From IMG/VR virus record IMGVR_UViG_3300003178_000005: a DNA stretch of 64,000 nucleotides. One strand, written 5' to 3'. Shown here one piece after another: positions 830 to 62,137 of the stretch. The stretch's first letter is position 1. Every line of letters begins with the position of its first letter. Under the pieces are notes generated by a model. The model saw only the letters and a list, made by a program, of their open reading frames with translations, searched no databases and had not been told where the DNA came from. The DNA is from an uncultured virus (IMG/VR IMGVR_UViG_3300003178_000005) (Duplodnaviria; Heunggongvirae; Uroviricota; Caudoviricetes). The position numbers were made by a program, and so were the translations under genes.

Positions 830-899
830 TTAGATTGGTTTTGATAAAGTCATGGCTTTATGAGAACCAGTCTAATTTTTGATAGTTTTGAATTGACTT

Positions 900-1140
900 G
901 GGGCCCAGAGGACGCTCTGGGATGGTACCTAAAAACCTATCCAAAACTATTAACGCAATATGCCTTCGGAGGGTTAAGCCCAAAGACGCATATCTGGCGT
1001 GACTAAGAGAGGGTGAAGCCGTTCGGGAGATAAGCGCCCTGAATCCGCCACGCTCGTGGAGGCCCCTCTCGATTGTCGAACTCATTCTGCCAACTACGGT
1101 TTACTAAAGTGAGGAGTGGGAGAAGACGCAATCTTCGACT
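900..1140 (+). ncRNA. Candidate structured ncRNA, family unassigned
   Basis: GC-rich, no credible ORF; stems 904-910/915-921, 958-963/988-993, 1007-1013/1064-1070, 1048-1052/1055-1059. Confidence 0.5.
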
Positions 1141-2492: not shown

Positions 2493-3220
2493 ACATCTTT
2501 ACATTCGGATGTTTTTATGGCATAATGCATTAAAACATAAGGATTAAAGAATGAAGCATAGTTACAGAAGATTGAATGGTTACGTCCTAACCTATGAGCC
2601 GTCTAGCAAGTATTGCATGACATCAGAAAATTGGGATGGATGGGTATATGAACATATACTCGTCATGGAAAGAAGGCTTGGTGAAATACCTGACGGATTT
2701 GAAGTGCATCATCTTGATGGTGACACTGAAAACAATAGGGACGACAACCTAATACTTCTTTCAAAGGAAGACCATACAAGACTTCATAACTGGCTTCAGT
2801 CGTGTGACATCAACTTGAAAGAGTTGAATGCAAATCGGATGAATTCAGGGAAACCTAAACTATTCAGGTGTAAAGAGTGCGATAAGCCATTGTCTGGAAG
2901 CCAGACAACATTTTGTTGTACTGCATGCCAAAATAGGTTTAGCTCAAAGAAACCTCCTGTAGACGAGCTTATAGGTAAAACTATAAGCGAAATCTCAAGC
3001 AAGTTTTCAGTAACTCCGAAGACTGCAAGAAAATGGTTTCATTCATACGGAATAGCATGGCAATCCTGAGCGAAGCCAATGACGAACTTCATTGGAACGT
3101 GCAGAGACTACACGGTGCAAGAAGCGTCTTGCGTAATACGTGATTAGCGTCCGACACCTAAGTGCTACATGCATATGGTGATGATATAGTCCACGGAGTA
3201 GTGAAAGCTACACAAACGTG
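2493..3220 (+). mobile_element. Group I self-splicing intron (728 nt) encoding an HNH endonuclease
   Basis: 5' exon ends in U, intron ends in G; P3 TCGGATG 2835-2841/CGTCCGA 3148-3154; P4 TTCAGG/CCTGAG; P7 GAGACTA 3104-3110/TAGTCC 3187-3192; P9 GTAGT-GAAA-GCTAC. Confidence 0.92.
2551..3069 (+). CDS. Intron-encoded HNH homing endonuclease with zinc finger and HTH-like tail
   Basis: YEHILVMERRLG..EVHHLDGDTENNRDDNL..H; CKEC..FCCTAC; AAGGA SD; TGGCATAAT -10-like box upstream. Confidence 0.9.
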   Translation: MKHSYRRLNGYVLTYEPSSKYCMTSENWDGWVYEHILVMERRLGEIPDGFEVHHLDGDTENNRDDNLILLSKEDHTRLHNWLQSCDINLKELNANRMNSGKPKLFRCKECDKPLSGSQTTFCCTACQNRFSSKKPPVDELIGKTISEISSKFSVTPKTARKWFHSYGIAWQS

Positions 3221-7860: not shown

Positions 7861-8781
7861 TTAGCCCTCCATATAGCTCTTTATTTCTGCATACAGCTTA
7901 TCGTACACATCTTTGTTTTCTTCAAGGAAAAGTTTTGCACTATCTTTCCCTTGCCCTATAGACTTGCCGTCATAAGAGAACCATGAACCATTTTGCTTTA
8001 TTATCCCATGCTCCTTCCCATAGTCTACCTTATTCTTCTTGACTCTAGCTTTTACTCTTACATTCGAGGACTCGCTCTTTATCACTTTGGTCTCTATTCT
8101 GACAGAAGAGAAGAACTTTAAGCCTTTACCGCCAGTAGTCACCTCTTTTGGGCCATACCCCATTGAACTTATGTTTGCCCTGAGCTGATTTATAAACAAA
8201 ACCGTTGTATCTGTAGATGAAGCTGGCCCAACTATTTTTCTTAGACCTTTAGACATTATTCTCGCTTGAAGACCTATTGTCTGGTCTGTCATATCTCCCT
8301 CTATCTCGGCCTTTGGGGTTATGGCTGTAACAGAATCAACTACAACTATACTAAATGCACCGCTTTCAACAAGTTTCATCAATATATCCATCGCCTGCTC
8401 GCCGAAGTCTGGCTGAGCGAACAGCATATTTGATGTATCAAGACCTATTTTCTCTGCGTATGAAACATCAAAAGCATGCTCTGTATCTATGTATGCTACT
8501 TTTTTATCTGGAAACTTTCTTTGAGCCTCTCTGGCAATCGATATAGCAAGCGATGTTTTTCCTGAGCTTTCATTTCCATAAACTTCAACAACCCTTCCTA
8601 CCGGAACGCCGCCTATCCCAAGTGCGGCATCCAGCCCTATCGAGCCAGTTGGTATGCTTTCGATAGTCTTTATATCTTCGCTGCTCAGGGTCGTTACGAC
8701 ATCCTCTCCGAACATGCTCTTAAGTTCTGCTATAGCATCATTCATCTTATTGGACACATTGTCCTTTCTTTTTTTTGCCAT
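7861..8781 (-). CDS. recA: RecA recombinase
   Basis: IPTGSIGLDAALGIGGVPVGR, GNESSGKTS, VVVDSVTA, FINQLR; the segment after KKNKV is missing. Confidence 0.95.
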   Translation of the reverse strand: MAKKRKDNVSNKMNDAIAELKSMFGEDVVTTLSSEDIKTIESIPTGSIGLDAALGIGGVPVGRVVEVYGNESSGKTSLAISIAREAQRKFPDKKVAYIDTEHAFDVSYAEKIGLDTSNMLFAQPDFGEQAMDILMKLVESGAFSIVVVDSVTAITPKAEIEGDMTDQTIGLQARIMSKGLRKIVGPASSTDTTVLFINQLRANISSMGYGPKEVTTGGKGLKFFSSVRIETKVIKSESSNVRVKARVKKNKVDYGKEHGIIKQNGSWFSYDGKSIGQGKDSAKLFLEENKDVYDKLYAEIKSYMEG

Positions 8782-8863
8782 ATTGCCCTCTCTTTTGTGT
8801 TTATTTAGGCAAGTATACCAGAAGTAACCTTATAAATATTTAATAGAAGGCTTCTATTGTACA

Positions 8864-11800
8864 TCACCCGACAGTAACCCTATCGTTATAGTTTATTTCT
8901 CCACTCTTTATTTTCTTTTTGAGTTCGTCAATATTTTTTACCCTTACAGTCTTTTTTCTTGACGGATTAGACGCTTTGTAGATTCCAAGGGTAGCATCTT
9001 GGTCTGGAAGCGCAACAATATCCGGGTCAGCAAAAGAGCCCTGGTCACTAAAAATATTCTTACTTGGCATAAGCTTATTTTTGACATCATCTATTGCTTT
9101 TGTTGTGACTGGCACATGCACGGCAACAGTATCCCCATCATAGTCTGCCCCAAGGCTTCTCTCAAGCAATGGATTTATTCCTATCGTATTACCCTTAACA
9201 AACTTAGGAAATCCTCCAACCATATTATGCTTCCATAGTGATGGTGCCCTATTGTACACAACAGGGATTTCTTTTCCGATTTGATGCAAAGCGTTTATCG
9301 CCTCAGGAGACTTTTCATCAATCATCTCTTTTGCTCTTACTGGAGGGATGCCTGCTCTAGATAGCCTTCGTGTAATATGTGGCTCGTACATTTTGAGTCC
9401 CATTTTTTCTGGTATCTCTATCTCATCTATTCCAATATCTGTTCTTGCTGGTTTAATTACGCCACGACCACTCATGAACTGCTTTACTCTCAACATGTTT
9501 TTTTGAGCAAAGGACTGCTTTGGCGTATCTCCACCCAATATATCAAGAACACCTTTTGTATTTTTGTCAATCATTTTCTTATTCGGAGATTTTTCAAGTC
9601 CATACATTGCTCCAACTGACTTGTACAACTCATACTCAAGGTCGTGCCTTGTTGAGTCTTTATCATTTCTTGAATGTTTTATTGTATCAGCTAGAAGGTT
9701 TATATCTTGATAGTGCAAGTTCAAATCATTTACTGATATGTCTCCATTTGCATCTTTTGATACAGGTCTGAATACTGGAGGAATAACAGGAACTTTTGAC
9801 AAGAATGCATAGTCTGATATCTTTCCTCCCATATCTTTTGCTTTATCAAGGAACTTAATCAGCTTTATGTTCCTGTTTATGAGCTGCTGACTTTTTGTGT
9901 TCTCTGACTCTTTTTTTAGCTTCTTTATCTCTTATTCAGGCTTAATTTTACTAATTTCATCATAAATCCACTTTGAGCCCTCTTTTTTCATCTTTGAATC
10001 AAGTTTATCTGTTGTCATACCTAGAAGCCTTGCAACTGGCTCTTTGTATATAGGATTAAGTATTTTTACGCCAAGATTTATATGGCCATACTTTGTCCCG
10101 TTTGGTCCGCCAAATATTGTCTCATCAAAAAGACCACCCTTTATCACCTTTCCATCTTTAGCGTAAACCGTGTCAGCGTTTTTTATTGCTCCAGACGATT
10201 TTTTCTCTATTTCTTTATCTGTCATAGGAGTTAGTGAGAACTCTGATGTATTCTTATCAGCCTTCACGTTCACTCCCATCTGTGTAAGGTAAGCCTTAAA
10301 TTTTTCTGACGCAAAGTTCTCGGCAGGAGGAGGCAATGGCGCACCAGACCTAAATGCATTAAAGAACTCATCATTTCTTTGTCCCTTTATATGCTTCGCC
10401 TCGTGCAGCAGGTCTCTTGCATTATGAGCAAGAAGGGCATTAACCTCCATGTTTGAGTATGATGACGCACTCTCCTCTCCACCTTTTAGTGGTTGTTCAT
10501 TTATATCAGTTCCGCCAACTCCAACTGCGCTCATTCCTGATTCTGAATCCTTGAATAGTTTCATTATCAATGGGTTTCCGACAAAAACCTTTTTCGGGAA
10601 AGGCTTGCCTGTTTCTGGATTTATTAGCTTTTCATACAATTCAACATTGTGTTTTTTTGCCTCTTCTTCCATAAACTTCAGATTATCAGGCTTTTCATAA
10701 TGCTCAAGAACATATCTTTTTTTTGTTTTTTCTGATACTTTTCCAAGGCCTGCCTCAATAAGGGAGCCACCATTTGTACGAGATATTACACCAGCAGATG
10801 TCATAAGGATATGCACANNNNNNNNNNNNNNNNNNNGGCATATCTTTATCTGGAATTATCTTTGTAACAACACCTTTGTTTCCCTGCCTTGCGCTAAGCT
10901 TATCCCCTATCTTTACTTTGCTGTCAACCTTGACCGTCAGCCTTATTTCTGACGCACCTCGCTTAACATCAACAATCTTGCCTGGGTCAGCATGATGCCA
11001 CACATCAATTATTGCTTTATATGGCCTATGCATTACCTTTTCAAGTTTTGTTTTTATTTGTTTTGCGTCAGACTTTGCGAGTTTGAATGATAGTGGCTGG
11101 TTTTTTTGAACAGTAGCACCTTTCTTTATTACTCCATATTCGTCATAGTTCTGGGCTCCCCACTTTGCTACTATTTGAGGAAAAAGCGTCTTAAACCTTT
11201 TCATGTCAAGTATTTCACCAGCTCCTATATGTATATTTTCCTTATACATATGCTCCGACGTAAGCTGCTCTGCGGCTGTCTCAGATATAATGATTCCATC
11301 GTTTCTGTTTCCAGGCATCGATAGCCAAGCAGTCCTCATATTCTTGCCAAGTGCAAGATGTCCATCTTTAGTGAAGTTTGAATCAGCAAGAGGTTGACCT
11401 TTTTTTACCTTGTCTCCAACTTTAACCTTTAATTCATGACTTATGAATGTTTTTCTTGCCAGAGGCATATCTTTTTTCTTGCCAGAGGCATATCTTTTGT
11501 GTAATCCTCTTTATGGACCTTTCCGTCTTTGTCTTTTATGTATATAAAGCTCTTATCTATCTTTGAAACAACGCCGTCAACTGGAGAAAAAGGTATATGA
11601 TTTGAGTCTTTTAGAACTACACGGGTAAAATCTTCTCCGTCTTTCTTTACTGAAACATGAGGAATCTCTCTGTCTCTTAGTGATAGCGCCTGCTGCGAGT
11701 GCTTTTGTGCCATATTCGTTCTGTTTGCATCAGATGAATTTATTAGCGGTATAGTATTGCTTGATGGAGCATGAATATCAGCAGAGCTTGGAATTATATA

Positions 11801-13129
11801 GTCAACATCTTTTTTGCTTTTTGCCTTAAAATCTTGATTGCCAAGTCTAACCATTATGCCGTCAGTCTTGGCTCTCTCTTTTGAAACTGGGTACGCAACT
11901 TTCTTATTCCACAGGTCGGCAATTCTCTTCACTTCATGCTTTCCTGTTTTCGCATTAATTACACCTATAGCTGGCGCTCCAGTTTCATCAATATATGAGT
12001 TGTCAGTAACAGCAAGAGTAATTCCTACTGAAGCCCCTTCTGGAGAAACAATTGGGTCTATGAATCCCAAGTGTGACGGGTGAACTGCCTTTGTGTCAAG
12101 ATTAAGCGCCCTCGTATCGCCAACTCCTCCCTCTCCCATAGGTGTAATCAAGTGTGTTGTTGTATGCATCATGAGAGGGTTGTATTCTTCGCTAAGCCTT
12201 GAAGCCTTCGAGCTAACTATAAAGTTTTTTACAGGCCTAGTGATTTGTGCAGTACCACTTCCAAGCACATCATCAATCTTTGATGTAGATGGATTTCCAA
12301 GCTTAAATTTTATTTTATTTATCTCTTCTCTTATGTTCTTAGAAAAGGCCTCTGCAAGCATGTCCTCAGGCGCCATTACTTGCTTAAATAACATATTTTC
12401 TCTGTCGTCTTGAGGCTCCTTTCCACTATATACGGCTAAAAGCTTTTTTGCAGCAGCGAGTATTACATCAGGATTTAGAGTTTCAGCTGAAATACCTAAT
12501 GTCTGTTTGACAGCTTCAGGACTAACAGTTGCCTCGCTTATTGCTCGCTTCAGCTCATCTTTTGCATTATGTTCATTTACACTATCAGAAGAGTATCTGA
12601 ATGCCTTCATAAATTTTTGAGAGTCTCCTGGATTGTAAGTCTTCTTGTTTATTTCAAGAAGCTCCTTTCCTATCGCTGCCTCTATTTTAGAATCTGAAAC
12701 GCCAAGGTCATGCAGTATCGAGTATAGCGACACATGTAGCGAGCCTACCTTGAGTGTGTATACTCCAGGTCTCATTCTTTGCTGGTATGGGATTGTGTAC
12801 GAGTTTCCCTCAATTACAAAAGAACCCTTCTTTGTGTATGTTGGTATCCTCATAATTGAGCGTCTCTTTCTGTCAACAACTTTCTTTTTGTTTTTGTCGT
12901 ACAGTGTAATATCTGCAACAACATTTGACATTATTGACGAGCCACTGGAAAGCGCATTTTTTACATCAGACAGAGATGCAGAATCTCTTGTTATTTGGAA
13001 GTTTTTTGCATCAAGGCGGAAGAAATTGCCTTCTATTGGGAAGATGTTTGATAACTCTGTTATTATTTTTTGTTTTACAGCCCTGTCAGTTTCTGCACTG
13101 GACCTATTTAGTTTTCTAAAAGTAGACAT
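8864..13129 (-). CDS. rpoBC: RNA polymerase beta fused to the N-terminal half of beta-prime (ORF pieces 11441-13135, 10755-11468, 9932-10816, 8864-9832)
   Basis: Beta motifs VHPSHLGFIDPIVSPEG, DANRTNM, GDKLSARQGNKGVV, NMEVNAL; beta-prime motifs GGLFDETIFG, VPVIPPVFRP, NRAPSL, GADYDGD. Breaks: 23-bp duplication, N gap, one in-frame TAA. Confidence 0.88.
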
Positions 13130-13193
13130 ACACAAAAGCCTTTATCGATAAAGTATTTTGTGTATTTTAGCATAATATGACTTATCCTGCGTA

Positions 13194-13409
13194 CTAACCT
13201 TCCTCTCTTGCGTCAATTATTTCTCCAGAAGTTATTAGTCTTCCGATTGTGTCGTTGTATACCTCTATTGGAAGCTTAACGTGGTCTCCATTATTAAACA
13301 GGATATCTACAACAGAATCATTGCCATCAACCGGGAATACTTTCCATCCGTAAGTAACAAAATCCAGAGCTCTATCTAGCCCATTTTCGTCTTTTACCAA
13401 AATTACCAT
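13194..13409 (-). CDS. Hypothetical protein
   Basis: 71 aa ORF in a tightly packed operon. Confidence 0.55.
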   Translation of the reverse strand: MVILVKDENGLDRALDFVTYGWKVFPVDGNDSVVDILFNNGDHVKLPIEVYNDTIGRLITSGEIIDAREEG

Positions 13410-14945: not shown

Positions 14946-17360
14946 TCAAGCTATCGTACACGTCTTTTTTTCTAAAAACAAGGACAAAGTTGTCAGTATC
15001 ACACCATGCTGATTCATCCTTAGCCTCTTATCAAACAGCTTGTCTTCAACCTTGTTCTCACCTACTTTTATATTTAAAAGCAATTTTTCTATATTCATTA
15101 GTGATGCTACGGCCTCATTGCTGAAGAATACTTCGTACATCAAATCATGAAAGTCCCATCCATCCATGTATCCTGACACCTCAACAAGACACATTCCAGG
15201 AAGTATCTTTTCAAAGAAATCAACATATGGATGCTTTGAGTCCAATCGTTTTTTGCTTAGCTTCTTTAGCACGGCTGAAACAAATTTATTTTCAGCTGCA
15301 ATAAGTTTTTTGTGGCTATTCATGACAAAAGATATTATCACATGCGACATGTCATCAGTATCAACAAGAAACGAGTCAGCTTCACTGCTTATTCTTGCAG
15401 GGAAATTAAATATCATAGACTCTTCGATAATTATAGGCGACTCTGAAAATACCACTATCGGCGTTGTATTTATGCTTTTTATTGTTGAATCAGTATTTTT
15501 GAACCTGCTTATGGTTTCTGTCCCAAACCTTTCTATTGATAGCTTTTTAAGAATCTTCTCTGTTTTGTTTGTGATGTCAGATACCAGTATTGAGGTAGTC
15601 CCGTCGGCTATCTTTTTTAAAACGAACTCACTCTCTGTATTCATAAATATAGAATTCCTAAAGCATCCCTCAAACACTTTTCTAATCATTCCGTTTTTTG
15701 TATATGTTCCAGCTCCATATACTGAAAGAGTAGACTTGTTTGCCCTTTTTAGGACAGGCAAAACAGCCGATGACGATATCAGTATCGCAAATATCTCATT
15801 TAATCTATCTGCACTAGGAATAAATCCTTCAACAGACTTTACTATCTGGGATATAGCAGACACTACTGTATTTTTTGTTGGCCTTGTCTTTGGTATACGA
15901 ACATCTGTTGAGCTAGGGCTAAAAAGGACTCCACCAAACGAATGTCTCCCCCCTAGTCCATACACCCCATGTTTCGAATTGTAAACAATCTTGTCTCCAA
16001 TTCTATGCACTCCTGGACCATAAAACCTATCAAATACTGGCAATGCAGCAAATTCACTATGAACGACTTTCATTACCATATTAACAACAAATGATTCAAT
16101 AGTATTGTATCCAGCTGGTATATTTTCCTTATTTACTCCACAGTAAGAAGCAATATACTTGACGCCTCCAATTTCCGGTATCAATTCGTTCATTATTCCA
16201 TTTTTGTCTAGGTTGAAGTCTTTGAAGTATTTCATGTCCTTATTGTAGAATCTAATTAAACTACTATCACCATTTAGCCTTACTATTCTTGATGATAGTT
16301 CTATATTTTTATTGTTTATCAGCTCACTTATCTTCGATATATAATTGTTGTCTGAACCGTCAATATATGGTTTCACTAAGTCAACTATATCCTGAGGCAA
16401 CAACTTGGATAGTGAATCTAACACCACACCACGATTTACAGTGTTCATTCTTGATATTATTCTTGATATGTCTATTATTCTTGCAATAGAAGATGAGCCA
16501 TATAGCTCATATAGCTCTGCCATCATTCCTGCTATCTTTGTGGTTGCAACCTCGGAATTTATCAGTATTGTCTTGTCACCACCACCAATCTTAAGTATGG
16601 ATTCAAGCATATTTACAATGAAGTCGTCATTAAGACTCTCTATGTTTAGAGAATCGAAGTACTCAACTACGTTTGATATACCATCTGTGCTCTCTTCTGG
16701 AAGGTAGACTGTGGACTCACTGAACTCTTCAGAGCTATCTCTTATGTCTTTTATTTTTACTGTATCTTTTGTTGATAGCGACAACAACCTATCCTCAAGA
16801 AAAGCAGACCTTTTCACCTCAGCAAATCGAACTGGTATAAATATTGTCGTAGTATCCAGTATTATTTCAAATCCAGTGAGCCTATCATATATATCAACAT
16901 AGTATCTTGCGCTACTGCCTTCATAAACAAATAGGCCGTCTAGAATATCCTCCATATGTCTCGATGCATCCTTGAACATCGACAACGCATACTCTCTTGT
17001 AGGTATAGTAAATACACCATTTTTTGGTGATAGTACAGTTTCAATTGCAGACAGAACGCTTTGGTTAATCATGTCGAATTTTACATACTCGTCATAGTCT
17101 TTCTTTTTTATTGGAAGCTTTATCCCTGAAGAGTATAGTATTTTTGATATTCTTACAAATTCATTGTCGGAAGATGGAGCAGATGTCTCAAACTTTTTTC
17201 TAAATAAGACCAAAAGTAGATACATTGGGTCTGGATTCCACAGGTCTCCACGGTAGAACTTTTTCCCTTTGGCGTCTATCCTTACTTCTGCAGAATGAGC
17301 CATATTTTCAAAAAAACTCAAATTTTCATCAAAAAAACTCCATAAAGCGTCAAAATCCAT
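14946..17360 (-). CDS. Large hypothetical protein (weak resemblance to degenerate primase/helicase-associated proteins); likely continues into 14737-14961
   Basis: 804 aa ORF, GAGG SD, TGGTATAAT promoter; no intact catalytic motif seen. Confidence 0.6.
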   Translation of the reverse strand: MDFDALWSFFDENLSFFENMAHSAEVRIDAKGKKFYRGDLWNPDPMYLLLVLFRKKFETSAPSSDNEFVRISKILYSSGIKLPIKKKDYDEYVKFDMINQSVLSAIETVLSPKNGVFTIPTREYALSMFKDASRHMEDILDGLFVYEGSSARYYVDIYDRLTGFEIILDTTTIFIPVRFAEVKRSAFLEDRLLSLSTKDTVKIKDIRDSSEEFSESTVYLPEESTDGISNVVEYFDSLNIESLNDDFIVNMLESILKIGGGDKTILINSEVATTKIAGMMAELYELYGSSSIARIIDISRIISRMNTVNRGVVLDSLSKLLPQDIVDLVKPYIDGSDNNYISKISELINNKNIELSSRIVRLNGDSSLIRFYNKDMKYFKDFNLDKNGIMNELIPEIGGVKYIASYCGVNKENIPAGYNTIESFVVNMVMKVVHSEFAALPVFDRFYGPGVHRIGDKIVYNSKHGVYGLGGRHSFGGVLFSPSSTDVRIPKTRPTKNTVVSAISQIVKSVEGFIPSADRLNEIFAILISSSAVLPVLKRANKSTLSVYGAGTYTKNGMIRKVFEGCFRNSIFMNTESEFVLKKIADGTTSILVSDITNKTEKILKKLSIERFGTETISRFKNTDSTIKSINTTPIVVFSESPIIIEESMIFNFPARISSEADSFLVDTDDMSHVIISFVMNSHKKLIAAENKFVSAVLKKLSKKRLDSKHPYVDFFEKILPGMCLVEVSGYMDGWDFHDLMYEVFFSNEAVASLMNIEKLLLNIKVGENKVEDKLFDKRLRMNQHGVILTTLSLFLEKKTCTIA

Positions 17361-18150: not shown

Positions 18151-18538
18151 AACAGAAGAACTAAAGAGAGAGCTCCAGGTGCTATCGGACGCTCTCGTGG
18201 AGTATGTTGGCACGAATATGGAAAGGATGACATCAAAGGGTGCACTGATGCACAACCTAAGGGATGTCGGGTTCACTAGTGTAGGAGAATCTAAATTTGC
18301 GCTAAATCTTAAATACCACAACAAAACGTATGTATCTTTTCTTCTTTCGTTTAGGAATGGGAGTGTAGATATAACCGAAGACCACATAATAGTAGTTGAT
18401 GGCAAAGAAGAGCCTCTTTCGTCAGTAAGGAAGCCTTTCACATTAATAGGCGTTAGATACAGCAAAGTTATAGAATCTCTACTAAACAGAGTGAAAGAGC
18501 TAACAGAACTTTTTAAGGAGGGAGCAATAGATGAGTAA
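18143..18538 (+). CDS. Hypothetical protein
   Basis: GGAGG SD, overlaps both neighbours. Confidence 0.65.
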   Translation: MSKTEELKRELQVLSDALVEYVGTNMERMTSKGALMHNLRDVGFTSVGESKFALNLKYHNKTYVSFLLSFRNGSVDITEDHIIVVDGKEEPLSSVRKPFTLIGVRYSKVIESLLNRVKELTELFKEGAIDE

Positions 18539-19463
18539 ATATAACATAGAAAAGGATATAAAGTATCTGGAGGACAATGGTGTTGTGTTTGATGAGTGGA
18601 TTGATATTGAAGATGATTTTTACCACTCGTCACCAGGGATAAGCGCTAGTGGGCTAAAACTGATAGACAAAGAGTGCCCAGAGGTATACAAGTATATGAA
18701 AGAGCACCCAAAGGAAAAGACAGAGGCTTTGATTCTTGGAAATGCTATCCACAAGTATATACTTGAAAACGAAAAGTTTGAGGAGGAGTATCTTGTTGCC
18801 CCCACAAGCAAAAAAACAGACCGTGATTACAAGATATTCATCAACAACCATAAAAAGGAGATTGAGGAAGGTAAGATAGTCTTAAGAAAAAAGGACATGG
18901 AGATGCTTGAGGGCATACTTGCCTCGCTAAGAGATAGCTCCACGAAAGGAGGGACTAATACTTATGATGGCATAATTCTAAATCCGAATACGCAAAGAGA
19001 GAAGGCTCTTTATACTATAGACAAGGACAGAAACATTATACTGAAAGTGAAGGTTGACATCAATATGTCAGGAATGTTTCTTGACCTCAAGTCAACAAAA
19101 AGTGCCCATCCGGACAATTTCATGAAGGATGCAGCAAACCTTGGGTATGGCATTCAGGCTGCGTACTATAGAAAAATAGCATCGCTTGCGGGGAAAGAAG
19201 CCAAGATGTTTGGTTTTATTCCGGTTGAAAAGGAGCCCCCATACATTCACTCTGTAATTATCATGGATGAAGAGGATGTTCAGCTTGAGCAGCACAAAGT
19301 TGAAAGGCTTCTTGACATATATTCATTCTGTATAAACAATGATATATGGTACGGTCCGAACGGGATAGACACAAAAAAGAAAAAAGAGCCGCTCTTTGTC
19401 GTAAAGAGGATGCCGTCATGGCATAGATTTAAACTTGAGGAGGAGAAGGATTTTGAAGGATGA
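18531..19463 (+). CDS. RecE-like exonuclease (DUF3799, PD-(D/E)xK)
   Basis: YHSSPGISASGLK, LGNAIH..ILE, KVKVD, DLKST, YGIQAAYY, FIPVEKEPP. Confidence 0.85.
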   Translation: MSKYNIEKDIKYLEDNGVVFDEWIDIEDDFYHSSPGISASGLKLIDKECPEVYKYMKEHPKEKTEALILGNAIHKYILENEKFEEEYLVAPTSKKTDRDYKIFINNHKKEIEEGKIVLRKKDMEMLEGILASLRDSSTKGGTNTYDGIILNPNTQREKALYTIDKDRNIILKVKVDINMSGMFLDLKSTKSAHPDNFMKDAANLGYGIQAAYYRKIASLAGKEAKMFGFIPVEKEPPYIHSVIIMDEEDVQLEQHKVERLLDIYSFCINNDIWYGPNGIDTKKKKEPLFVVKRMPSWHRFKLEEEKDFEG

Positions 19464-19692: not shown

Positions 19693-20622
19693 ATGGGAAC
19701 AGAAATTCAAACAGTAACAGATAACGGAGGACTTGCTAGTCAGGTGGTAAGTCTAATTGCGGAGAAGAATTCCGATATAGATAATGGACTTCTTATGAAC
19801 AAGCTAAACATGATTATAGCAAAAACGCCAAAAATTGCACAAATGCCGCCTGAGGTTGTGTCTCAGGCAATACTCAAGGCTATGATACCGGACCCTACAC
19901 TGCAAGACCATGACGATATATACTTTGTGCCCTACGGGAAGACAATAGATGTATCATTCTCTCATAACTATCTTCAAAAACTTGCCTATAGAAATGGAGC
20001 CGTGAAACTCATAGAAACTCATTTAATCTATGACGGAGACGATGTTAAGGTTACAGAAAAGGGCGTCAGCTACAACATTAACCCATTTAAAAAGAATAGA
20101 GGCGAGTTTGCTGGAGTCATGGTTGTTGTTAAGCTTGCAAATGGCGAAACAAAATATGGCTTTGTTGATGTTGAACATATAGAAAAAGCCAGGAAAGCGT
20201 CTAAATCTGGGAACAATGGTCCGTGGAAAACGTGGTATTTTGAGATGGCAAAAAAGGTTGCAATCAAAAATACATTAAAGGGTCTTGATATATCTCCTGA
20301 GTTTAATGCTGCAATAACAATCGATAACGAGGACACAGACTTCTCTAAAGCAAATGAAGCGGAAGCTCCAGCAGCAACAGAAGAACTTGAAAAAATGATG
20401 GAAACAGGAAGCTCTATTGCAAATTCTGCAGAAAGCATACTGGAAAGCCTTGGGATTGAGTTTAAATTTAATGGAGATTGGTTCTCTGTTGATATCATAA
20501 ATTCAGAGAAAGATGGTGTTGAGCAGCTTGGGAAAATCATTAAGCTTGGAACAAAATCCAATAGACCTGGATATGTATTTGGAAAAATAAGTGACCTTGT
20601 AAAGGCATATGAAAATGGCTAA
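19693..20622 (+). CDS. recT: RecT-family ssDNA annealing protein
   Basis: YFVPYG, IEKARKASKS..GPW..W..EMAKKVAIK. Confidence 0.85.
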   Translation: MGTEIQTVTDNGGLASQVVSLIAEKNSDIDNGLLMNKLNMIIAKTPKIAQMPPEVVSQAILKAMIPDPTLQDHDDIYFVPYGKTIDVSFSHNYLQKLAYRNGAVKLIETHLIYDGDDVKVTEKGVSYNINPFKKNRGEFAGVMVVVKLANGETKYGFVDVEHIEKARKASKSGNNGPWKTWYFEMAKKVAIKNTLKGLDISPEFNAAITIDNEDTDFSKANEAEAPAATEELEKMMETGSSIANSAESILESLGIEFKFNGDWFSVDIINSEKDGVEQLGKIIKLGTKSNRPGYVFGKISDLVKAYENG

Positions 20623-30655: not shown

Positions 30656-31539
30656 ATGAGAGTTGCGTCTGATTATATACTTGACTTTAACGACAGCCTT
30701 GATAATGTAAATGATGTAAAAATTTTCTTTGGTAAGCATGATGGAATACAGAGGTATGATAGATACAAATATCCTGTGGCGGAAAAGCTTGTAAGAGCCC
30801 AGCAGGCAGCTACATGGTTTCCTAGAGAAATAAACTTCTCAAGAGACAGGACTGGCTTTAACAATGCATTGTCAGAGCCTTTTCGTGAGATATACAAAGC
30901 CAATCTTCTATTTCAGACAATGGCAGACAGCCTTGCTAACAGATTCCTAGACAATGTCCTTGCTGAGTATGTAACAAGTCCAGAATGGGAAGCTGTCCTA
31001 AAATGGCAAGCGCACTTTGAACTTGTTCACTCAGAAGCATATAGTTGGAATATTAGAGAAGTTTTTAGTGACCCTGAAAAATTCTTCAACGAAGGCTTCA
31101 AGAACGAGAACATAAGAAAAAGGCTAGATATCGGTTCTTCGTTTCGTTTCTATATACATTCAAGATAAATGAAATGAATGAACAGGTAATGCAGGGTTCT
31201 GTAAACAATATTAAACTAATACTCAATGACGAAATAATTCACACTGTTATCTTTAGGAATCTAATCAATATATTGAAAGAAAACAGTGACGAAGGTTTTT
31301 CACATCTATTTACAGGTGAAATAGAAGATTTGATAGCAAATTGCTTCACTGAAGTAATAGAAAGCGAAATGGAGTGGTTTAGATACCTGTCAAGCATACA
31401 AGAAATTCTAGGTTTCAACGAGGAGACAATCCGTGGGTTTCTTGAGTACTACACGCATGCCGCATTAAAATTCATCAATAACAAAAATAGCGAGAATTTT
31501 ACATCATCACAGAACGAGCTTGTTGTTATAAATGGCTAA
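30656..31539 (+). CDS. nrdB: Ribonucleotide reductase class Ia beta subunit (two pieces, internal deletion near 31130)
   Basis: QRYD..KYP, WFPREI, FQTMADS, ELVHSEAY, RFFVSF, DEIIH. Confidence 0.88.
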
Positions 31540-35601: not shown

Positions 35602-37387
35602 TTATGCCCCTTGCTCGCCCTCTTGAACACTTTTGGCAGCTTGGTATGCCTGCTTGTTCTGCTGCATCTCCAGCATGGCCTTAACTACACCATACATTAT
35701 ATAATTGGTTTTGGCCATTTCGTCTAGCTGAGAACGTCTACTTCCTTCATCCATCTGAGAAAGCTGCTCTGCATATTGCTGCGCTTCAGCCATTAGAGCC
35801 TGCTGGTTCAGCGACTGGAAGTTGCTTGTATTCATTTGCTCCTCGGCTTTTGCTCTCTCTTCTATGCTAGTAGAAACCTCTTGTTGGTACCTGCTAAGTT
35901 CAAGCTGCGCCTTAACAGCATCTTTCTGGTCTTGTACCCCACGCTTCTTCTCTGTTCCAGAATCAATATTAAACATCTCAAGAAGTGTAGAGTTGCTAAT
36001 CATTCCTTGCCCAGAAGAAGCAAGCTGAATAATAGCAGCTTTTTCCTGCAGGTCATCAATAATCTTAAACGGAACCATTTTTACTTTTATAGGCTCTTTG
36101 TCTATCGCCACAGCAACTCTTCCAATAATAAACTGAATAACATCCTCAAGATTTGCTGATAGTCTTGCAAGCTGATTCTCTAGCAGTCTCAGGGAGCTTC
36201 CTTGTGCAGTATAGCTAAGCCCTCCCTTTATAAACTCAATTGGTATCCCTAGTGCATTTGCGATATTGGACTCAAGCTGGTCTATCTCCTGATTTAGAGA
36301 CAGCAGCTTCCCATCTCCAAGTATTGTTTCAACGCCAAGAGAAAAAGGCACTGTTTGTACGGCAGATGGGTCAAGCTTCCATTTTTCAAGCATTGAGTTT
36401 ATCTTTGCTACAAAGTCTGTTCCGCCATGCTATTTTCTCATTGGCTTTTCTGAGAATCATCAATGTAAGAAATGGAGGTATTGCTGACATAAGTGCTGGC
36501 ATACCCCATGCAGAGCTAATTCCGTTTATTGTCTCTCTCTTTGAGTGATATATGTGGCCATCAGCAAATTTAAATATCTTCTTCTGAAGTGCTGCTTCTA
36601 TCATTCCTATCGGCATGCTTGATAGCATGAACTCATCACTGCTTCGAACACCTTTTATTATATCGTCTGGAATCTGATAGTAGTACTGATTTTTTCCTGA
36701 TATTGGGTTTGACTTTATTTTTATAAGATTTGGATTCCAGGTTATTATGTTTATATCTTCTTTTGATTTAAACTTAATATCACGAACCGAATGCTCTGTT
36801 ATCTTTCTACATGAGCTGCAATGGCACGTAAATTTTACATTTATCTTTTTCCCTGATGTGCCTTTATACTTCCTTGTTACGTCGGCGGCACTCTCTACTG
36901 CCTCATCTCTTGATAAAGCATTTGAACTGAATGAGCCATACGTTGTTGTAGATGTATCGTCCTTTTTTCTTAGACCAACTTTTAGCTTTTCTGCGTGAGC
37001 CAATTGCTTTGTTTCTCCACACTCTGTACACCTAAGTAGCCTAACTATAGGAGAATAAACAGATATGAAACAGTTTCCATATAGAAGTGTGTTGTACGAT
37101 ATAGAGAGAAGCTTTGATTTCAAGTTAAGCGAATCTTCAAGCACAGATTTCCAGCTATCATCGACAGATGATGATGCCTCATTCTGGTCTCCTGCTGCAA
37201 GGTATTTAAAGGTTGTGACAGGCGTTTCAGACATCTTTTTTATACCTGCAGCAGCAATAGGGTTATTATTTACAATGAATTCCATCCACTCAAACAGTTC
37301 TTTTATGTTTGATGGAAGAGAGCTGCTAAATTGTGATAATAATGGATGCTTTCTATAGCGCCGTCTAAGGTCGAAGTCAGTAAACAA
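35602..37387 (-). CDS. Putative portal protein (pieces 36386-37387 and 35602-36393) with zinc-ribbon insertion
   Basis: YGNCFIS, HIYH, WGMP, IANALGIPIEFI.GG.SY; acidic Gln-rich tail; adjacent to the protease. Confidence 0.7.
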
Positions 37388-43457: not shown

Positions 43458-44009
43458 TTAAAAGTATGAAATTATGTCGTTTTCTGCACACTCTTTTATT
43501 TTAACCGTGTTTGCAGAATTGTCTATCGTAATCATGTGTGGGTCGTTCTGGTTTGTAGTGCATAACACGCCATTAAGAAAGAACATCTTTAATGGCTTTG
43601 TTATTCCAGCCAAAGTCACGCTATTATTATCGCTTACATCAATGTTCTCTGCAGATACAACAACCGATGTTGGCGTGTATGATGGAATGTCAGTAGGGAG
43701 AACCTGCTGGATAATATTGCCTGACATAGTCTTGTATTGAAGTCTTTTTGTGTCGGTATTAAATGCTATTGTGCCATTTTCTTGTATAGAGGATAGCTCT
43801 TGCGATGTTCCAGTAATCGGAGTATATTTAAGAACCCCGTCTTTAATCATCGCAGACACAAAATCCTCGTTAGGGATATGTATGTTTTTATCTCCTGTTC
43901 CTATGAAGAATTTTTCTGTATCAATAGCGAATCCTGGCTCACGAGTTTGTAGTTTTATGTCTTTAAAGTCTTGTTCATATCCCCATCTTATCAGGAAAGC
44001 TTTAGCCAT
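43458..44009 (-). CDS. Fibre protein with Mtd-N/hyaluronidase-like N-terminal domain
   Basis: LIRWG..DF...L..REPGFA.DT.K.FIG. Confidence 0.65.
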   Translation of the reverse strand: MAKAFLIRWGYEQDFKDIKLQTREPGFAIDTEKFFIGTGDKNIHIPNEDFVSAMIKDGVLKYTPITGTSQELSSIQENGTIAFNTDTKRLQYKTMSGNIIQQVLPTDIPSYTPTSVVVSAENIDVSDNNSVTLAGITKPLKMFFLNGVLCTTNQNDPHMITIDNSANTVKIKECAENDIISYF

Positions 44010-44047: not shown

Positions 44048-44845
44048 TTATGTGGCGTGCCACGTCATATTAACAGAAGGAATCCCTGTTAATGTCTGCA
44101 TTTTTGGAGTTATTGTCAAGATTGCCTTGTTCATGCTTCCATTTATTCCGAACGCAGGTATCTTGACTATCACTTTTGAATCGCTTGTTATATAGAGCGA
44201 GTAATACTGGTCGTCATAGTCAGACAGGTTAAGGTTTGTCTTTAGCACAAAAACATCACCAGTATCAGGGACCAAAATGTTTGCTGGGACAAAAAATATT
44301 CCAGGAAGTATTCTTGGAGCATCGGCAGACTCTATCAGGTTATCGCCTTCTGTTACAGTGAAATTAAAGAATTCAGTAAACATAAACTCATATACGCACT
44401 CAGTACCATCGTAGTCGCCTATCTCAAACTCGTAGTAGTATCCAGCTGCACCGCCATCAATAGGTGTGAGCGTCACGGCCTCTTTACCTGAGCCGGAGCC
44501 TCCGCCAAGACTATTAATAAAATCTTCCTCTGTTCCTATGTTTCCAAGACCCAGCCAGATATCATATGCAGACTCGCCGTCATCGCCAGCGAGAGAATTA
44601 AGGAAATCTTCTTCTGTTCCAGTATTCCCATTGTTTAGCCAAATTTGGTATGCAGAGTCGAAGCTCTCAAGCTTTGCATCTACAATTTCTCTTACTATGT
44701 CCTCTGTTGGAATATTTACATTTCCTTTTGTTGTTCCAAGATATAGCTTTTCTGTATCTGATGCAAAACCAAGCTCTCTGACCTGCAAATTGACAGATTG
44801 AAAATCTAGTTCAGTCCCTACTCTTAGTAAAAAAATCCTAGCCAT
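44048..44845 (-). CDS. Fibre protein with Mtd-N-like domain and two SAY.IWL..GN.GTEEDF.NSL repeats
   Basis: N-terminus paralogous to 43458-44009; tandem repeat typical of phage fibres. Confidence 0.7.
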   Translation of the reverse strand: MARIFLLRVGTELDFQSVNLQVRELGFASDTEKLYLGTTKGNVNIPTEDIVREIVDAKLESFDSAYQIWLNNGNTGTEEDFLNSLAGDDGESAYDIWLGLGNIGTEEDFINSLGGGSGSGKEAVTLTPIDGGAAGYYYEFEIGDYDGTECVYEFMFTEFFNFTVTEGDNLIESADAPRILPGIFFVPANILVPDTGDVFVLKTNLNLSDYDDQYYSLYITSDSKVIVKIPAFGINGSMNKAILTITPKMQTLTGIPSVNMTWHAT

Positions 44846-53142: not shown

Positions 53143-55044
53143 TTAGGCTCCAGATGAAATCGATAAAACACCGTTGTTGTTCCATAGTTTTCCTGCAATA
53201 CCTGGGTCTACTGTTGGAAGCATGTTGCCAAATTCCTCACTTAATAGAAACTCTATTGTTGTAATGGATTTTGCACCCAAGCCAGCGACTGAAGATGGTG
53301 TCGATACTGGGAGAGATGCGGAGCCATCGACATATACCTCAATAACGTTTTCTTGTTGTTTGTCCGAACCATTTCCAACTTCAAGCACAGTGTTATCTTT
53401 TCCGATATTATATGCACCAAGAAGAACCTGGGCTTGAGGAGCTGCGTCTGCGGAAATTATGTTCGAGCCAATACCTACAGCATTTATAGAGTTTAGATAT
53501 ACATTGACACCAGATGCAAACAATCCAGTATCAATATTGCAGTTTGAACCAATAATATGTCCAAATTGGTAGTTGCTTGCAGAATCAGAGCCAATCACTA
53601 CAGTACTGACAGCCGAAGCAGAATTGCTATCGCCTATTGCTATTGCATAGTCTGCAGACGCTGAACATGCAACCCCAATAGCTACAGAAGACACACCTGA
53701 TGAAACCATCTCTTGTCTTTTNNNNNNNNNNNNNNNNNNNNNNNNNNNNNNNNNNNNNNNNNNNNNNNNNNNNNNNNNNNNNNNNNNNNNNNNNNNNNNN
53801 NNNNNNNNNNNNNNNNNNNNNNNNNNGCATCATTACCTATAGTTCCGTAGTAATCTGGATTTGCCCCGGAAAACCTCCATCCAGAATTTTTTCCATCAAT
53901 AATCCTTTCCAACCCAATAATTAGTCTTGCCGCCTCTTTAGTTAATACTGATTTTTCTCCCCTGTCTAACACATTTGTTGCTACAGAGTTCTTTAGCTCT
54001 AATGTACCGTCTGGATAGTCTGCAAGACCGTTTTCTGTTGAAAATCCATCGAATACTTGATGATAATATCCTTCCTTCTTCTGTGATTGGTTCAATGTCA
54101 AGGACGACTCTACTGTTTTGTGTGACATCTATATCATCTTCAGTTGTTCCTTCTATGCTTATCGATGATGATGATAAAAATACTATCCTTCCATTGTATT
54201 GTGCTTGTATTGCATTTTTTGAATTTTTTATGCTTATGTTTGCATAATTTATTTGAATCGACGAATTTGATGAGGCTGTTATAGCATCTACGGCCACACC
54301 ATTTGTTTGCTCTATAACCATATCATACCAAGAAATAGCATTTGCGTTTGATGATATATATATTACGGAATTACCAAAAACATTCATGTTGTATGTATAT
54401 ATATTCCACATCAATATAGAGCTGTTGTACATGCACGATATGGCACGCATCCCCCCAGTCATAGACAAGTCATGAACACGACCAATCCCACCATTTATGT
54501 TAACATGGACCAAGCTCTGAGACTCATCAGTATCAATTGTTGACAGGTTTGATACAATAAGTTGTCCTGCAGAGGATGAAAAGATAGCCTTGTATCCAGA
54601 ATTCTGACCTCTAGAAACTCTTATTATAGTTGAATCTTTTCCTGAGCCTACAATTTCAATCGGAAGTTGTCTTCCGCTTGTGCTGAATAGATAATCGCCC
54701 TCAATCACAAAATCATATGTTCCACTTTCAATGCTTACTCTTAGCCATGAATTTGGAGCAAATACATTTTCGTCTATCCAGGCTGATAATTCATCGAAAG
54801 TCTGAAAGTCTCCACTTGGACCAAGCGTTTTCTCTACTACACCAGACTTTTTTGAGAAGGCAATATCGCCAGGAGTGATTGTTCTACCATCTGACATGAG
54901 GAATCGGCCATTAAAATCTTGGCCGTCAAATGTTGGGATAGTTTTTCCGTCAAAAGATAGTGTTCCATCATTGCTTATATCTAGTATTTTATTTTTTAGT
55001 GTTATTGCACCTTCTACTATTAAATCAAATACTTTCCATGCCAT
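53143..55044 (-). CDS. Tail fibre/spike with beta-helix and YadA-head-like repeats (frameshift and N gap)
   Basis: G.SGDFQT motif, beta-helix repeats, then SVAIG..A.AIG repeats. Confidence 0.65.
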
Positions 55045-60642: not shown

Positions 60643-62137
60643 TCACAAAAACCCTCCAGTGTGCTTAGCTCTATCTGATGTAACATTATTTACATATGTC
60701 GGAGTTTTTGTATTCAGAATCTCTTCCCTAATTGCTTTTGACAAGTTTCTATAATTCATTTTTGAAAACAAGTTACCAGAAAATGTTGGTCTCTGCTCAA
60801 GTGCCTTAAAGATTGGCTTTACGGGTGGTCGCTCTTTTGTTGTCCTTACTCTAAAAATATTCCATTTTTTTAGTATCTTGTATACTCGCTCATCTATCTC
60901 AAGCCCTTTCGATAGAGAGCCAACATCTTCACCTAGATATTTGCCTATTATATTTTTTGACACTTGCTCCATCATGGATGTCCTTGGGTACTTTTCCATA
61001 AGCATAGAGTGCGAATCTATGTCTCCGTGCTTATCCATGCCGAGAGACAGATGCCCTCTTGATACCAATTCAAAATGCTTTTTCTGTAAATCTTTTCCAG
61101 TAGAGTTCAAGAATAGCTTATGGAGCATATTGCTTTCATGTTCTCGTGCTTCACCTATGCTTCTTGTTTCAAGAATCTGCTTCGGTGTAACTATCCCACT
61201 AGACAATGCTGTTCCCTTGTATACTATCTCGCCAACCTTTACTTTTACTGCAGATTTTGGCTACTGTTTGATTTTCCCATTGTAGAGTGCTTCGTGGATA
61301 GTGTCATCTGCGTCAGTACCTCACCCATTGTTTGTGCCGCTATTATTCCAACATTGTCGCCTACCGATGGAAGCTTTCCTGTTGGAAGTAGCCCGTAGCA
61401 CTTAGCGCAAACTCCTTTTTTTGCCTGGCACGTCAGCGGGCTTCTGACCTTTACCTTTCCTCCTTTTCTCTTTAGCACCTTAAAATAAGCCTCGTCTATA
61501 AGCTTGTTTGTTCCTGCCTCAAATCTACCAAGTATATGTCTATCTGAGGCATCCATGAATATCCCATTTGTTGTACCGCAGTCAACCATCGTTATTGTCT
61601 GGTCGTCTGTATTTGCGACAAGAACCTTGCCTAGAGCACCCGGCTCAGCAGTTGCGTTTGCAGCCTGAACAGATGAGAACCTTCCCTGGCTTGACACATT
61701 AAAATATTCCTGAGAATTCAACCCACTTGTAAAATTATTCTTTATTAGTGTTGGCTTTGGTAGCTGGTTCATGTCTACGGCATAAATTGGACCTATTGAC
61801 ATTCTGGCAAACTGAGCAGGCTTTCCTCTTGAGCCTGATTTTACTTGCTGCGCCATTTCGTTATCTTTTTCATCTATTTTATTAGCTTCTTTGACTCCTT
61901 ATCATTTGCCTTTAGGTCATTTGGACCAACATTGGCACCAAGATAAAATGCCATATGCTCGCCTATTGCGGCTATTTTGCTTATTGTGGATGCATATTTG
62001 CTTGGGTATTTTTTTGCAAATAGCTTCATTTTGGTTTTGAATTCTTTAGAATCTATCTTTTTATTGTACGGAAACTTTATGTCCGGTGGCAACATTTCAT
62101 TTATAAGTATAATCCCAGCTGTTCCTGTCATTTCCAA
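60643..62137 (-). CDS. rpoC: RNA polymerase beta-prime C-terminal half (pieces 61874-62137, 61245-61856, 60643-61206)
   Basis: SGSRG, NF..GL...EYF (bridge-helix region), [41 protein letters not shown] (trigger loop). Confidence 0.88.

Follow-up and report, generated by a model that had tools for sequence, protein, structure and literature searches.

A probable two-polypeptide bacterial-type RNA polymerase core in an uncultured tailed phage, with beta fused to the N-terminal part of beta-prime

We describe a multisubunit RNA polymerase encoded by IMGVR_UViG_3300003178_000005, an IMG/VR record of an uncultured virus of the class Caudoviricetes, of which a stretch of 64 kb (hereafter the window) was analysed. 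The window is part of a tailed phage of roughly 190 kb (related contigs reach 165-197 kb) and holds about one third of the expected genome. It very probably encodes its own RNA polymerase core of bacterial type made of two polypeptides, one comprising the whole beta subunit fused to the N-terminal part of beta-prime (chain 1) and the other the remainder of beta-prime (chain 2), the breaks in the window's copy being mostly faults of a poor scaffold and one in-frame TAA codon being polymorphic. Judged from their sequences, the two genes between them encode all of a catalytic core of bacterial type, and the residues of its active site are conserved.

An earlier note on this DNA, made from the letters and their open reading frames (ORFs), had claimed that beta motifs run directly into beta-prime motifs in one continuous frame, as part of a single chain of about 1400 amino acids (aa) that holds both double-psi barrels and stops soon after a GADYDGD motif and the sequence PDQDA.LG.Y. 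All of these motifs are found where the note had placed them (Table 1), and the limits it gave for the gene coincide exactly with its ATG and its stop codon, both of which are common to homologues of chain 1. The claim of one long chain holds for the repaired gene, which encodes 1445 aa, whereas the gene as assembled lies in four ORF pieces. For detailed comparison we used a profile of the chain-1 family (A1, an alignment of 36 members), mapped on Salmonella RpoB and RpoC with the RpoB numbering corrected for a 38-aa annotated extension. Mapping of domains by hidden Markov models, as the note had proposed, puts Pfam beta and beta-prime domains on adjoining pieces (Rpb2 domains 3 and 6 and Rpb1 domain 2 are above the Pfam cut-off); positions 21-990 of A1 align with residues 29-1062 of a 1104-aa cyanobacterial beta (E 8e-131) and positions 1076-1445 with residues ~169-539 of beta-prime (E 6e-82). 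The beta part has the features of a bacterial RpoB, namely a whole colinear subunit, Rpb2 domains 3 and 6 and the lysine of the GNKG motif, and its N-terminal portion is 74-75% identical to three metagenomic homologues (P0004-P0006, tblastn). The beta-prime part carries the aspartate triad of a bacterial RpoC (none of the 36 members of A1 departs from D1353, D1355, G1356 and D1357), and its C-terminal motif is the same as in P0004-P0007. Chain 1 is colinear with gp206 of Salmonella phage Arash (1525 aa), with D69_0261 of a Vibrio phage (1527 aa), with the ORF of a related IMG/VR contig (L005) and with eight homologues (P0001-P0008).

The two parts of chain 1 join end to end, because the mapping of A1 leaves a gap of only about four positions between the last matched residue of RpoB and the first of RpoC. 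The junction lies within continuous sequence, 570 nucleotides (nt) from the nearest N, and its length is constant in the chain-1 family at 16 or 18 residues. The note's claim that a short GPNGTK linker stands in place of the beta-prime zinc finger also stands: residues 65-177 of RpoC, zinc ribbon included, are represented by 39 positions of A1, the ribbon is absent in 118 of 118 family members together with the four N-terminal cysteines of RpoC, and the corresponding segment holds no cysteine in 116 of the 118 and a single one in the other two. AlphaFold was applied to a 529-aa fragment of the L005 protein that spans the junction; the mean predicted local distance difference test score (pLDDT) is 82.9, with values of 86-94 at the junction, and two strands pair across it in the model. 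The best Foldseek matches of this fragment are bacterial beta-prime chains (E about 1e-14, TM score on the query about 0.5).

A single chain with barrel, bridge helix and trigger loop, as in RpoC, is not found in the window: chain 1 ends at about RpoC 550, and the match to RpoC 572-1325 comes from a separate gene, 62131-60643, which lies 47 kb from the gene for chain 1. More precisely, the profile of the chain-2 family matches RpoC 572-947 and 1152-1325, that is, the region of the bridge helix and trigger loop without the proteobacterial insertion. We place the cut in beta-prime at RpoC 550/570, because chain 1 ends near 550 and the chain-2 profile starts near 572. A search for chain 2 recovered 632 proteins at E<=1e-10, of which the closest (about 60) are stand-alone proteins of 570-620 aa. 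The gene begins with Met-Thr-Gly-Thr-Ala-Gly, a start like that of its 95% identical relative P0121 (582 aa), which maps on the window as residues 1-80, 116-324 and 378-582; residues 81-115 and 325-377 are missing, and the frame changes at both places.

Table 1. Coordinates of the polymerase genes, their motifs and the lesions in the window, with corresponding positions in the family profile and in related contigs
Feature	Position	Strand	Evidence or remark
Fusion gene of beta and the N-terminal part of beta-prime (chain 1)	8864..13129	-	ATG at 13129, TGA at 8864-8866
ORF piece 1, 564 aa	11441-13135	-	Pfam Rpb2 domain 3
ORF piece 2, 237 aa	10755-11468	-	Pfam Rpb2 domain 6
ORF piece 3, 294 aa	9932-10816	-	Pfam Rpb2 domain 6; open frame 9935-10816
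ORF piece 4, 322 aa	8864-9832	-	Pfam Rpb1 domain 2; Rpb1 domain 1 sub-threshold
Beta, first ~580 residues (region of the rifampicin pocket; Rpb2 domain 3)	11474..13129	-	PF04565; phmmer against Salmonella RpoB
GNKG, beta barrel, active-site lysine	10872..10883	-	K775/G776 invariant in 36/36 (A1)
QPLKGG, beta motif	10478-10495	-	Frame 9935-10816
NMEVNAL, beta motif	10433-10453	-	Frame 9935-10816
QMGVNV, beta motif	10265-10282	-	Frame 9935-10816
Junction, RpoB ~1338 of 1342 to beta-prime residue ~19	10234..10249	-	A1 mapping, X2 record 10, AlphaFold
EIEKKSSGAIK, beta-prime motif	10181-10213	-	Frame 9935-10816
GGLFDETIFG, beta-prime motif	10109-10138	-	Frame 9935-10816
GPNGTK linker at the place of the zinc ribbon	10091-10108	-	Frame 9935-10816
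YGHINL, beta-prime motif	10073-10090	-	Frame 9935-10816
GADYDGD, Mg-binding aspartate triad of beta-prime	9131-9151	-	PF00623
PDQDATLGIY	8978-9007	-	Shortly before the stop at 8864-8866
RpoB 1209-1338 of 1342	A1 861-985		
RpoC 19-64	A1 990-1035		
RpoC 65-177, zinc ribbon included	A1 1036-1074		39 positions
RpoC 178-550	A1 1075-1445		
Gene for the C-terminal part of beta-prime (bridge helix, trigger loop; chain 2)	60643..62131	-	Pfam PF04998; three frames, two internal stretches missing
93 nt (31 codons) missing	12748..12749	.	31-aa gap against L005
23-nt perfect tandem duplication, shifts the frame	11450..11498	.	Tandem Repeats Finder, period 23, 2.1 copies, 100% matches
Run of 19 N, beta catalytic barrel region, frame not kept	10818..10836	.	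Scaffold sequence
In-frame TAA, polymorphic	9932..9934	-	Aligns with Lys in homologues
Full-fusion frame, contig L009	6713-12934		
Full-fusion frame, contig L011	6512-12910		
Full-fusion frame, contig L013	6764-12934		

Four lesions separate or shorten the ORF pieces of the chain-1 gene, and they can be compared with contigs from two sequencing runs (X1 and X2) of one sample, which contain 90-94% of the window's words and probably come from the window's own source. Neither run has the 23-nt duplicate in its contigs (depth 20.6 and 27.1). Between 12748 and 12749, X1 has 93 extra letters and X2 a matching loose end. Before 10837, contigs of both runs carry 20 loose letters that continue the frame after Asp-Met-Pro; the N gap has a true size of 21 nt rather than 19, because L005 has seven residues there. 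The X1 and X2 contigs contradict all three of these lesions, which look like assembly artefacts. The fourth lesion differs between the runs: at base 9934, X1 makes GAA (Glu) at depth 23.2 and X2 keeps TAA at depth 25, so that the site is polymorphic, with TAA as one of its alleles. With the three artefacts removed the gene measures 4266-23+93+2 = 4338 nt, that is, 1445 codons and a stop, the exact length of the closest homologues (P0004-P0007), and the L005 protein (73% identical) runs as a single open frame across every break point. Similar breaks, presumably scaffold damage as well, are seen in the chain-2 gene, in the portal gene and in the small subunit of ribonucleotide reductase. The portal gene, a homologue of Arash gp204 at 35602-37387, is in two frames with a break near 36400. 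The small subunit of ribonucleotide reductase is split into ORFs 30656-31168 and 31174-31539, which match positions 6-132 and 175-271 of a 281-position profile, and the gap of about 40 positions is probably another assembly deletion. Further N runs lie at 53722-53826 (105 bases) and at 59407-59454 (48 bases), the latter within a 715-aa ORF.

One could suppose that the TAA allele is functional and cuts chain 1 again about 100 residues into beta-prime, giving a three-chain core in part of the population. The codon is indeed present both in the window and in a contig at a depth of 25, and subunit boundaries do vary in this polymerase family. We nevertheless hold this to be improbable: X1 has GAA at the same depth, eight of eight close homologues and L005 are open at this place, with lysine, and the next in-frame ATG, GTG or TTG lies 33 codons downstream at 9832, so that conserved sequence would be lost. 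Moreover, TAA is an ordinary terminator in this genome, ending seven of 15 genes checked. Reassignment of the stop codon was considered separately and rejected; TGA and TAG end six and two of the same 15 genes, and because all three stops serve as terminators, the TAA is not accounted for by an altered genetic code.

If all four lesions were real, the gene would be a pseudogene in decay, carried by a defective phage or by what is left of a prophage. This would account for four lesions in a single gene and for the similar breaks in the other three genes, but it is a very improbable explanation: independent contigs of that sample lack three of the lesions, the breaks coincide with N runs and the ends of contigs, other long genes of the window are unbroken (804, 754, 737 and 733 aa), and no bacterial flanking genes are seen in the window. 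Given that the scaffold is demonstrably error-prone, the junction itself might be suspected of being an assembler chimera of separate rpoB-like and rpoC-like genes, and the earlier note had allowed that reads might expose it as a misassembly. The evidence goes against this. One re-assembled contig of X2 bridges the junction (record 10, 10126-10813), and the junction is reproduced in L005, in 120 listed metagenomic proteins, in four cultured phages and in the seven full-fusion contigs described below. Together with the continuous sequence around the junction, this leaves the chimera a negligible chance, and it is refuted as far as these data go.

Several points weigh against an intact two-polypeptide core used by the phage in the way that we propose. 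X1 and X2 share one sample and so probably amount to a re-assembly rather than to independent biology. As the TAA is present in the window and in X2, chain 1 may be truncated or cut further in at least part of the population. Neither sigma nor alpha was found in the 64-kb window by Pfam (74 of 98 ORFs at E<=1e-4), PHROGs (57 ORFs) or NCBIfam (42 unknown ORFs), in agreement with the earlier note; the missing sigma, in what is only part of the genome, runs counter to a sigma-dependent enzyme, and a divergent or host-supplied alpha may be present. Virion packaging, sigma use and alpha independence would all follow by analogy with Arash and from absent matches.

The fusion of beta to the N-terminal part of beta-prime is real, common to hundreds of phages and barely described. 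When the junction region served as query, 440 of 7999 scored candidates matched at E<=1e-5; the 120 of these that are listed cover 97-100% of the region, measure 797-2300 aa and all carry both PF00562 and PF00623. The possibility, raised in the note, that homologues encode separate full subunits is not borne out, since all 120 listed proteins are fused. None of the 120 has the domain of the C-terminal part of beta-prime, and the profile of that part matches 0 of the 110 proteins that measure 1400 aa or more. Among 419 candidates, a search for shorter proteins that cover the junction region gave 0 at E<=1e-5, which, in a shared-word search, is weak evidence against unfused close relatives. No PHROGs v4 family spans the fusion, and the pieces match beta-like and beta-prime-like families separately. 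Intein or LAGLIDADG domains (PF14528, PF14890) are present in many of the chain-1 homologues that measure 1800-2300 aa, and others carry PF18823 (InPase), PF00583 (acetyltransferase) or PF00719 (pyrophosphatase); such proteins include P0044, P0061, P0077, P0083, P0085, P0086, P0089, P0098, P0104 and P0107, and the polymerase gene therefore often receives insertions and additional enzymes.

The whole layout occurs in four of 50,697 phage records, namely Salmonella phage Arash and Vibrio phages D69, D148 and D181. In Arash, A1 covers residues 6-1524 of gp206, and the profile of the beta-prime C part covers residues 5-598 of gp216 (606 aa); the cut is the same as in the window, gp206 ending at position 1445 of A1 and gp216 starting at position 2 of the C-part profile. 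The Arash and Vibrio proteins are only 29-38% identical, and the gene for the C part lies about 5 kb downstream in Arash as opposed to 47 kb away in the window. Mass spectrometry of Arash virions found gp206 to be the most-detected protein (3516 spectra, 128 unique peptides, 100% coverage), and the virions also contain gp216 and the sigma factor gp10 (PMC10585845); in the parts of that article on which we draw, gp206 is named just 'subunit beta' and the fusion goes unremarked. The layout, which the earlier note did not recognise from characterised enzymes, is thus not unique: the Arash proteins have been public since 2023, with their presence in virions, and at least 120 metagenomic proteins share it. 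In the literature checked, with subscription journals outside its coverage, we found no description of a fusion of beta and the beta-prime N part with a separate C part, nor of a full beta-beta-prime fusion in a phage; this literature includes the relevant parts of PMC7598289, PMC7824862, PMC12619734, PMC13282480 and PMC12028318. With the sequences of the layout already public and a member in culture, the window adds one poorly assembled member and a polymorphic stop codon.

A search with a relative of the C part led to seven IMG/VR contigs (L009-L015, six of them distinct, 40-210 kb) in which a single stop-free frame of 2057-2631 aa contains the whole of A1, about ten residues, and then the whole C-part profile. 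The ends of chains 1 and 2 adjoin, because these frames run straight through the cut point. The window is not such a full RpoBC fusion, its stop codon being conserved in homologues. In two of these contigs, L012 and L015, there are large insertions within the frame. Subunit boundaries thus vary in this polymerase family. As to the direction of change, a FastTree tree of 120 rows nests the six full fusions among the split forms, where Arash and D69 are their neighbours (support 0.968), whereas a quick IQ-TREE run on 35 rows makes them sister to all split forms (Shimodaira-Hasegawa-like approximate likelihood ratio test, 91), and an approximately unbiased test does not reject the nested placement (p 0.458); the outgroups in these trees are two long branches only. 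The simplest path from adjacent, separate rpoB and rpoC genes would be fusion followed by fission.

Full natural fusions of RpoB and RpoC occur in Helicobacter and Wolbachia (NCBIfam NF007172 and NF011417, 'subunit beta/beta-prime') and likewise join the C-terminus of beta to the N-terminus of beta-prime. These chains are cellular and include all of beta-prime, whereas the window chain is cut after the catalytic barrel, and its beta-prime N part scores 122 and 98 bits against the two models, far under their cut-offs of 5372 and 4632. In cyanobacteria and plastids (gamma/beta-prime, RpoC1/RpoC2; PDB 8syi_D, 624 aa) beta-prime is likewise divided after the catalytic domain, and the earlier note had placed that division near the same point; however, chain 1 ends at about residue 558 of gamma, some 66 residues before the cyanobacterial cut (~624), and gamma is unfused to beta and keeps its own N-terminus. 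The enzymes of phiKZ- and AR9-type jumbo phages are multisubunit, have beta-prime divided after the catalytic barrel, include a virion form and lack alpha, as described in the parts of PMC7598289 and PMC7824862 considered here. Unlike the window family they have, according to the same parts, a split beta, no fusion of beta and beta-prime and no sigma, and are very divergent from bacterial enzymes; beta is not divided in our family, being whole and colinear in L005 and P0001-P0008. Yersinia phage YerA41 (L007) shares a bacterial-type phage core with a divided beta-prime, encoded by three genes (beta-prime N, 556 aa; beta-prime C, 518 aa; beta, 924 aa), but its beta is unfused, its cut lies roughly 45-80 residues further on and its profile matches are weaker. 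The mReC phages (Weinheimer and Aylward 2020, PMC7481178) are likewise tailed, and their beta and beta-prime are of bacterial type and branch deeply. They had been selected for a beta-prime match of at least 800 aa with NADxDGD, and in supplement 4 each of the 40 rows considered, out of 91 with PF00623, has COG0086 as its best match (68-490 bits), so that in those 40 rows the beta-prime proteins are separate. On these 40 of the 91 rows and the selection rules, we rejected the mReC phages as the same family; the sample number of L005 is absent from their supplements.

Sigma region 2 was found in both complete cultured relatives (Arash and D69); besides gp10, Arash has a sigma-like frame of 380 aa. 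The idea in the earlier note of a minimal two-chain enzyme therefore stands in part: the second chain is indeed the rest of beta-prime, but the idea left out sigma. The N-terminal domain of alpha (PF01000) was found in neither of the two complete genomes, while a control for alpha was positive in 14 of 14 genomes. Three residues of bacterial beta, D516, H526 and S531, are rifampicin hot spots, and the window differs in having E, T and T at these positions, which predicts an enzyme insensitive to rifampicin; if true, this would fit host shut-off.

The rest of the window is typified by genes for RecA, RecT, DnaB, SSB, ribonucleotide reductase, dUTPase, portal, protease and tail-fibre proteins, with few PHROG matches. 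A cluster of six tRNA genes (Glu, Pro, two Leu, Ser, Thr; 44-1648) has two HNH endonuclease ORFs inside and beside it (201-716 and 2551-3069). Two recombination systems are present, RecA and a pair of RecT with a PDDEXK nuclease (7861-8781, 18531-19463 and 19693-20622). Directly upstream of the polymerase gene, an 804-aa ORF (14946-17360) has no match in Pfam, PHROGs or NCBIfam. Two adjacent paralogous ORFs (43458-44009 and 44048-44845) have similar N-termini, one with a weak match to Mtd_N (major tropism determinant N-terminal domain), which hints at variable receptor-binding proteins. A megablast search with 8800-13200 gave no match among cultured phages, no RNA data set was among the sequencing runs listed for the window, and a scan for promoters and terminators around the polymerase gene found fewer sites than in shuffled sequences.

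We propose the following arrangement for the two-polypeptide core. Chain 1 (13129-8864, true length 1445 aa) comprises a complete beta whose C-terminus is almost seamlessly joined to the N-terminus of beta-prime; its beta-prime part includes the clamp helices as well as the barrel that bears the catalytic aspartates, and ends at about residue 550 of E. coli beta-prime. Chain 2 (62131-60643, true length about 582 aa) takes over at about residue 570 with the bridge helix, the trigger loop and the remaining clamp and jaw. Both catalytic barrels would be held covalently in chain 1, chain 2 would dock and close the active-centre cleft, and a phage sigma may bind the retained clamp helices. By analogy with Arash, the virion probably carries this enzyme, which probably works with a phage sigma and, once injected, would start transcription of the phage. 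The covalent link probably takes over the assembly role of the alpha dimer, which would make the alpha platform dispensable. A wider proposal, which we offer tentatively and regard as somewhat doubtful, is that these enzymes form a distinct, uncharacterised and alpha-free class of bacterial type, in which the covalent link replaces the alpha dimer, initiation depends on sigma, the core consists of one chain (2057-2133 aa) or two (1445 + 582 aa) with a mobile second cut, and the enzyme is packed in the capsid and injected for early transcription. If this were true, the enzyme would be small and stable enough for packing in a capsid.

To our knowledge, an alpha dimer is the assembly platform of every well-studied bacterial polymerase, and beta and beta-prime are whole and separate subunits in all of them, and the phage polymerases studied so far are, as far as we know, either single-subunit enzymes or of the very divergent phiKZ type. 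The family of chain 1 and chain 2 can be read residue by residue against the bacterial enzyme, despite the fusion, the lost zinc ribbon, the new cut in beta-prime and the seeming lack of alpha. It can serve as a natural experiment on what a polymerase truly needs in the way of subunit boundaries and accessory parts, on how a sigma-dependent polymerase fits in a capsid, and on how gene fusion and fission shape multisubunit enzymes, and the cultured member Arash opens these questions to testing.

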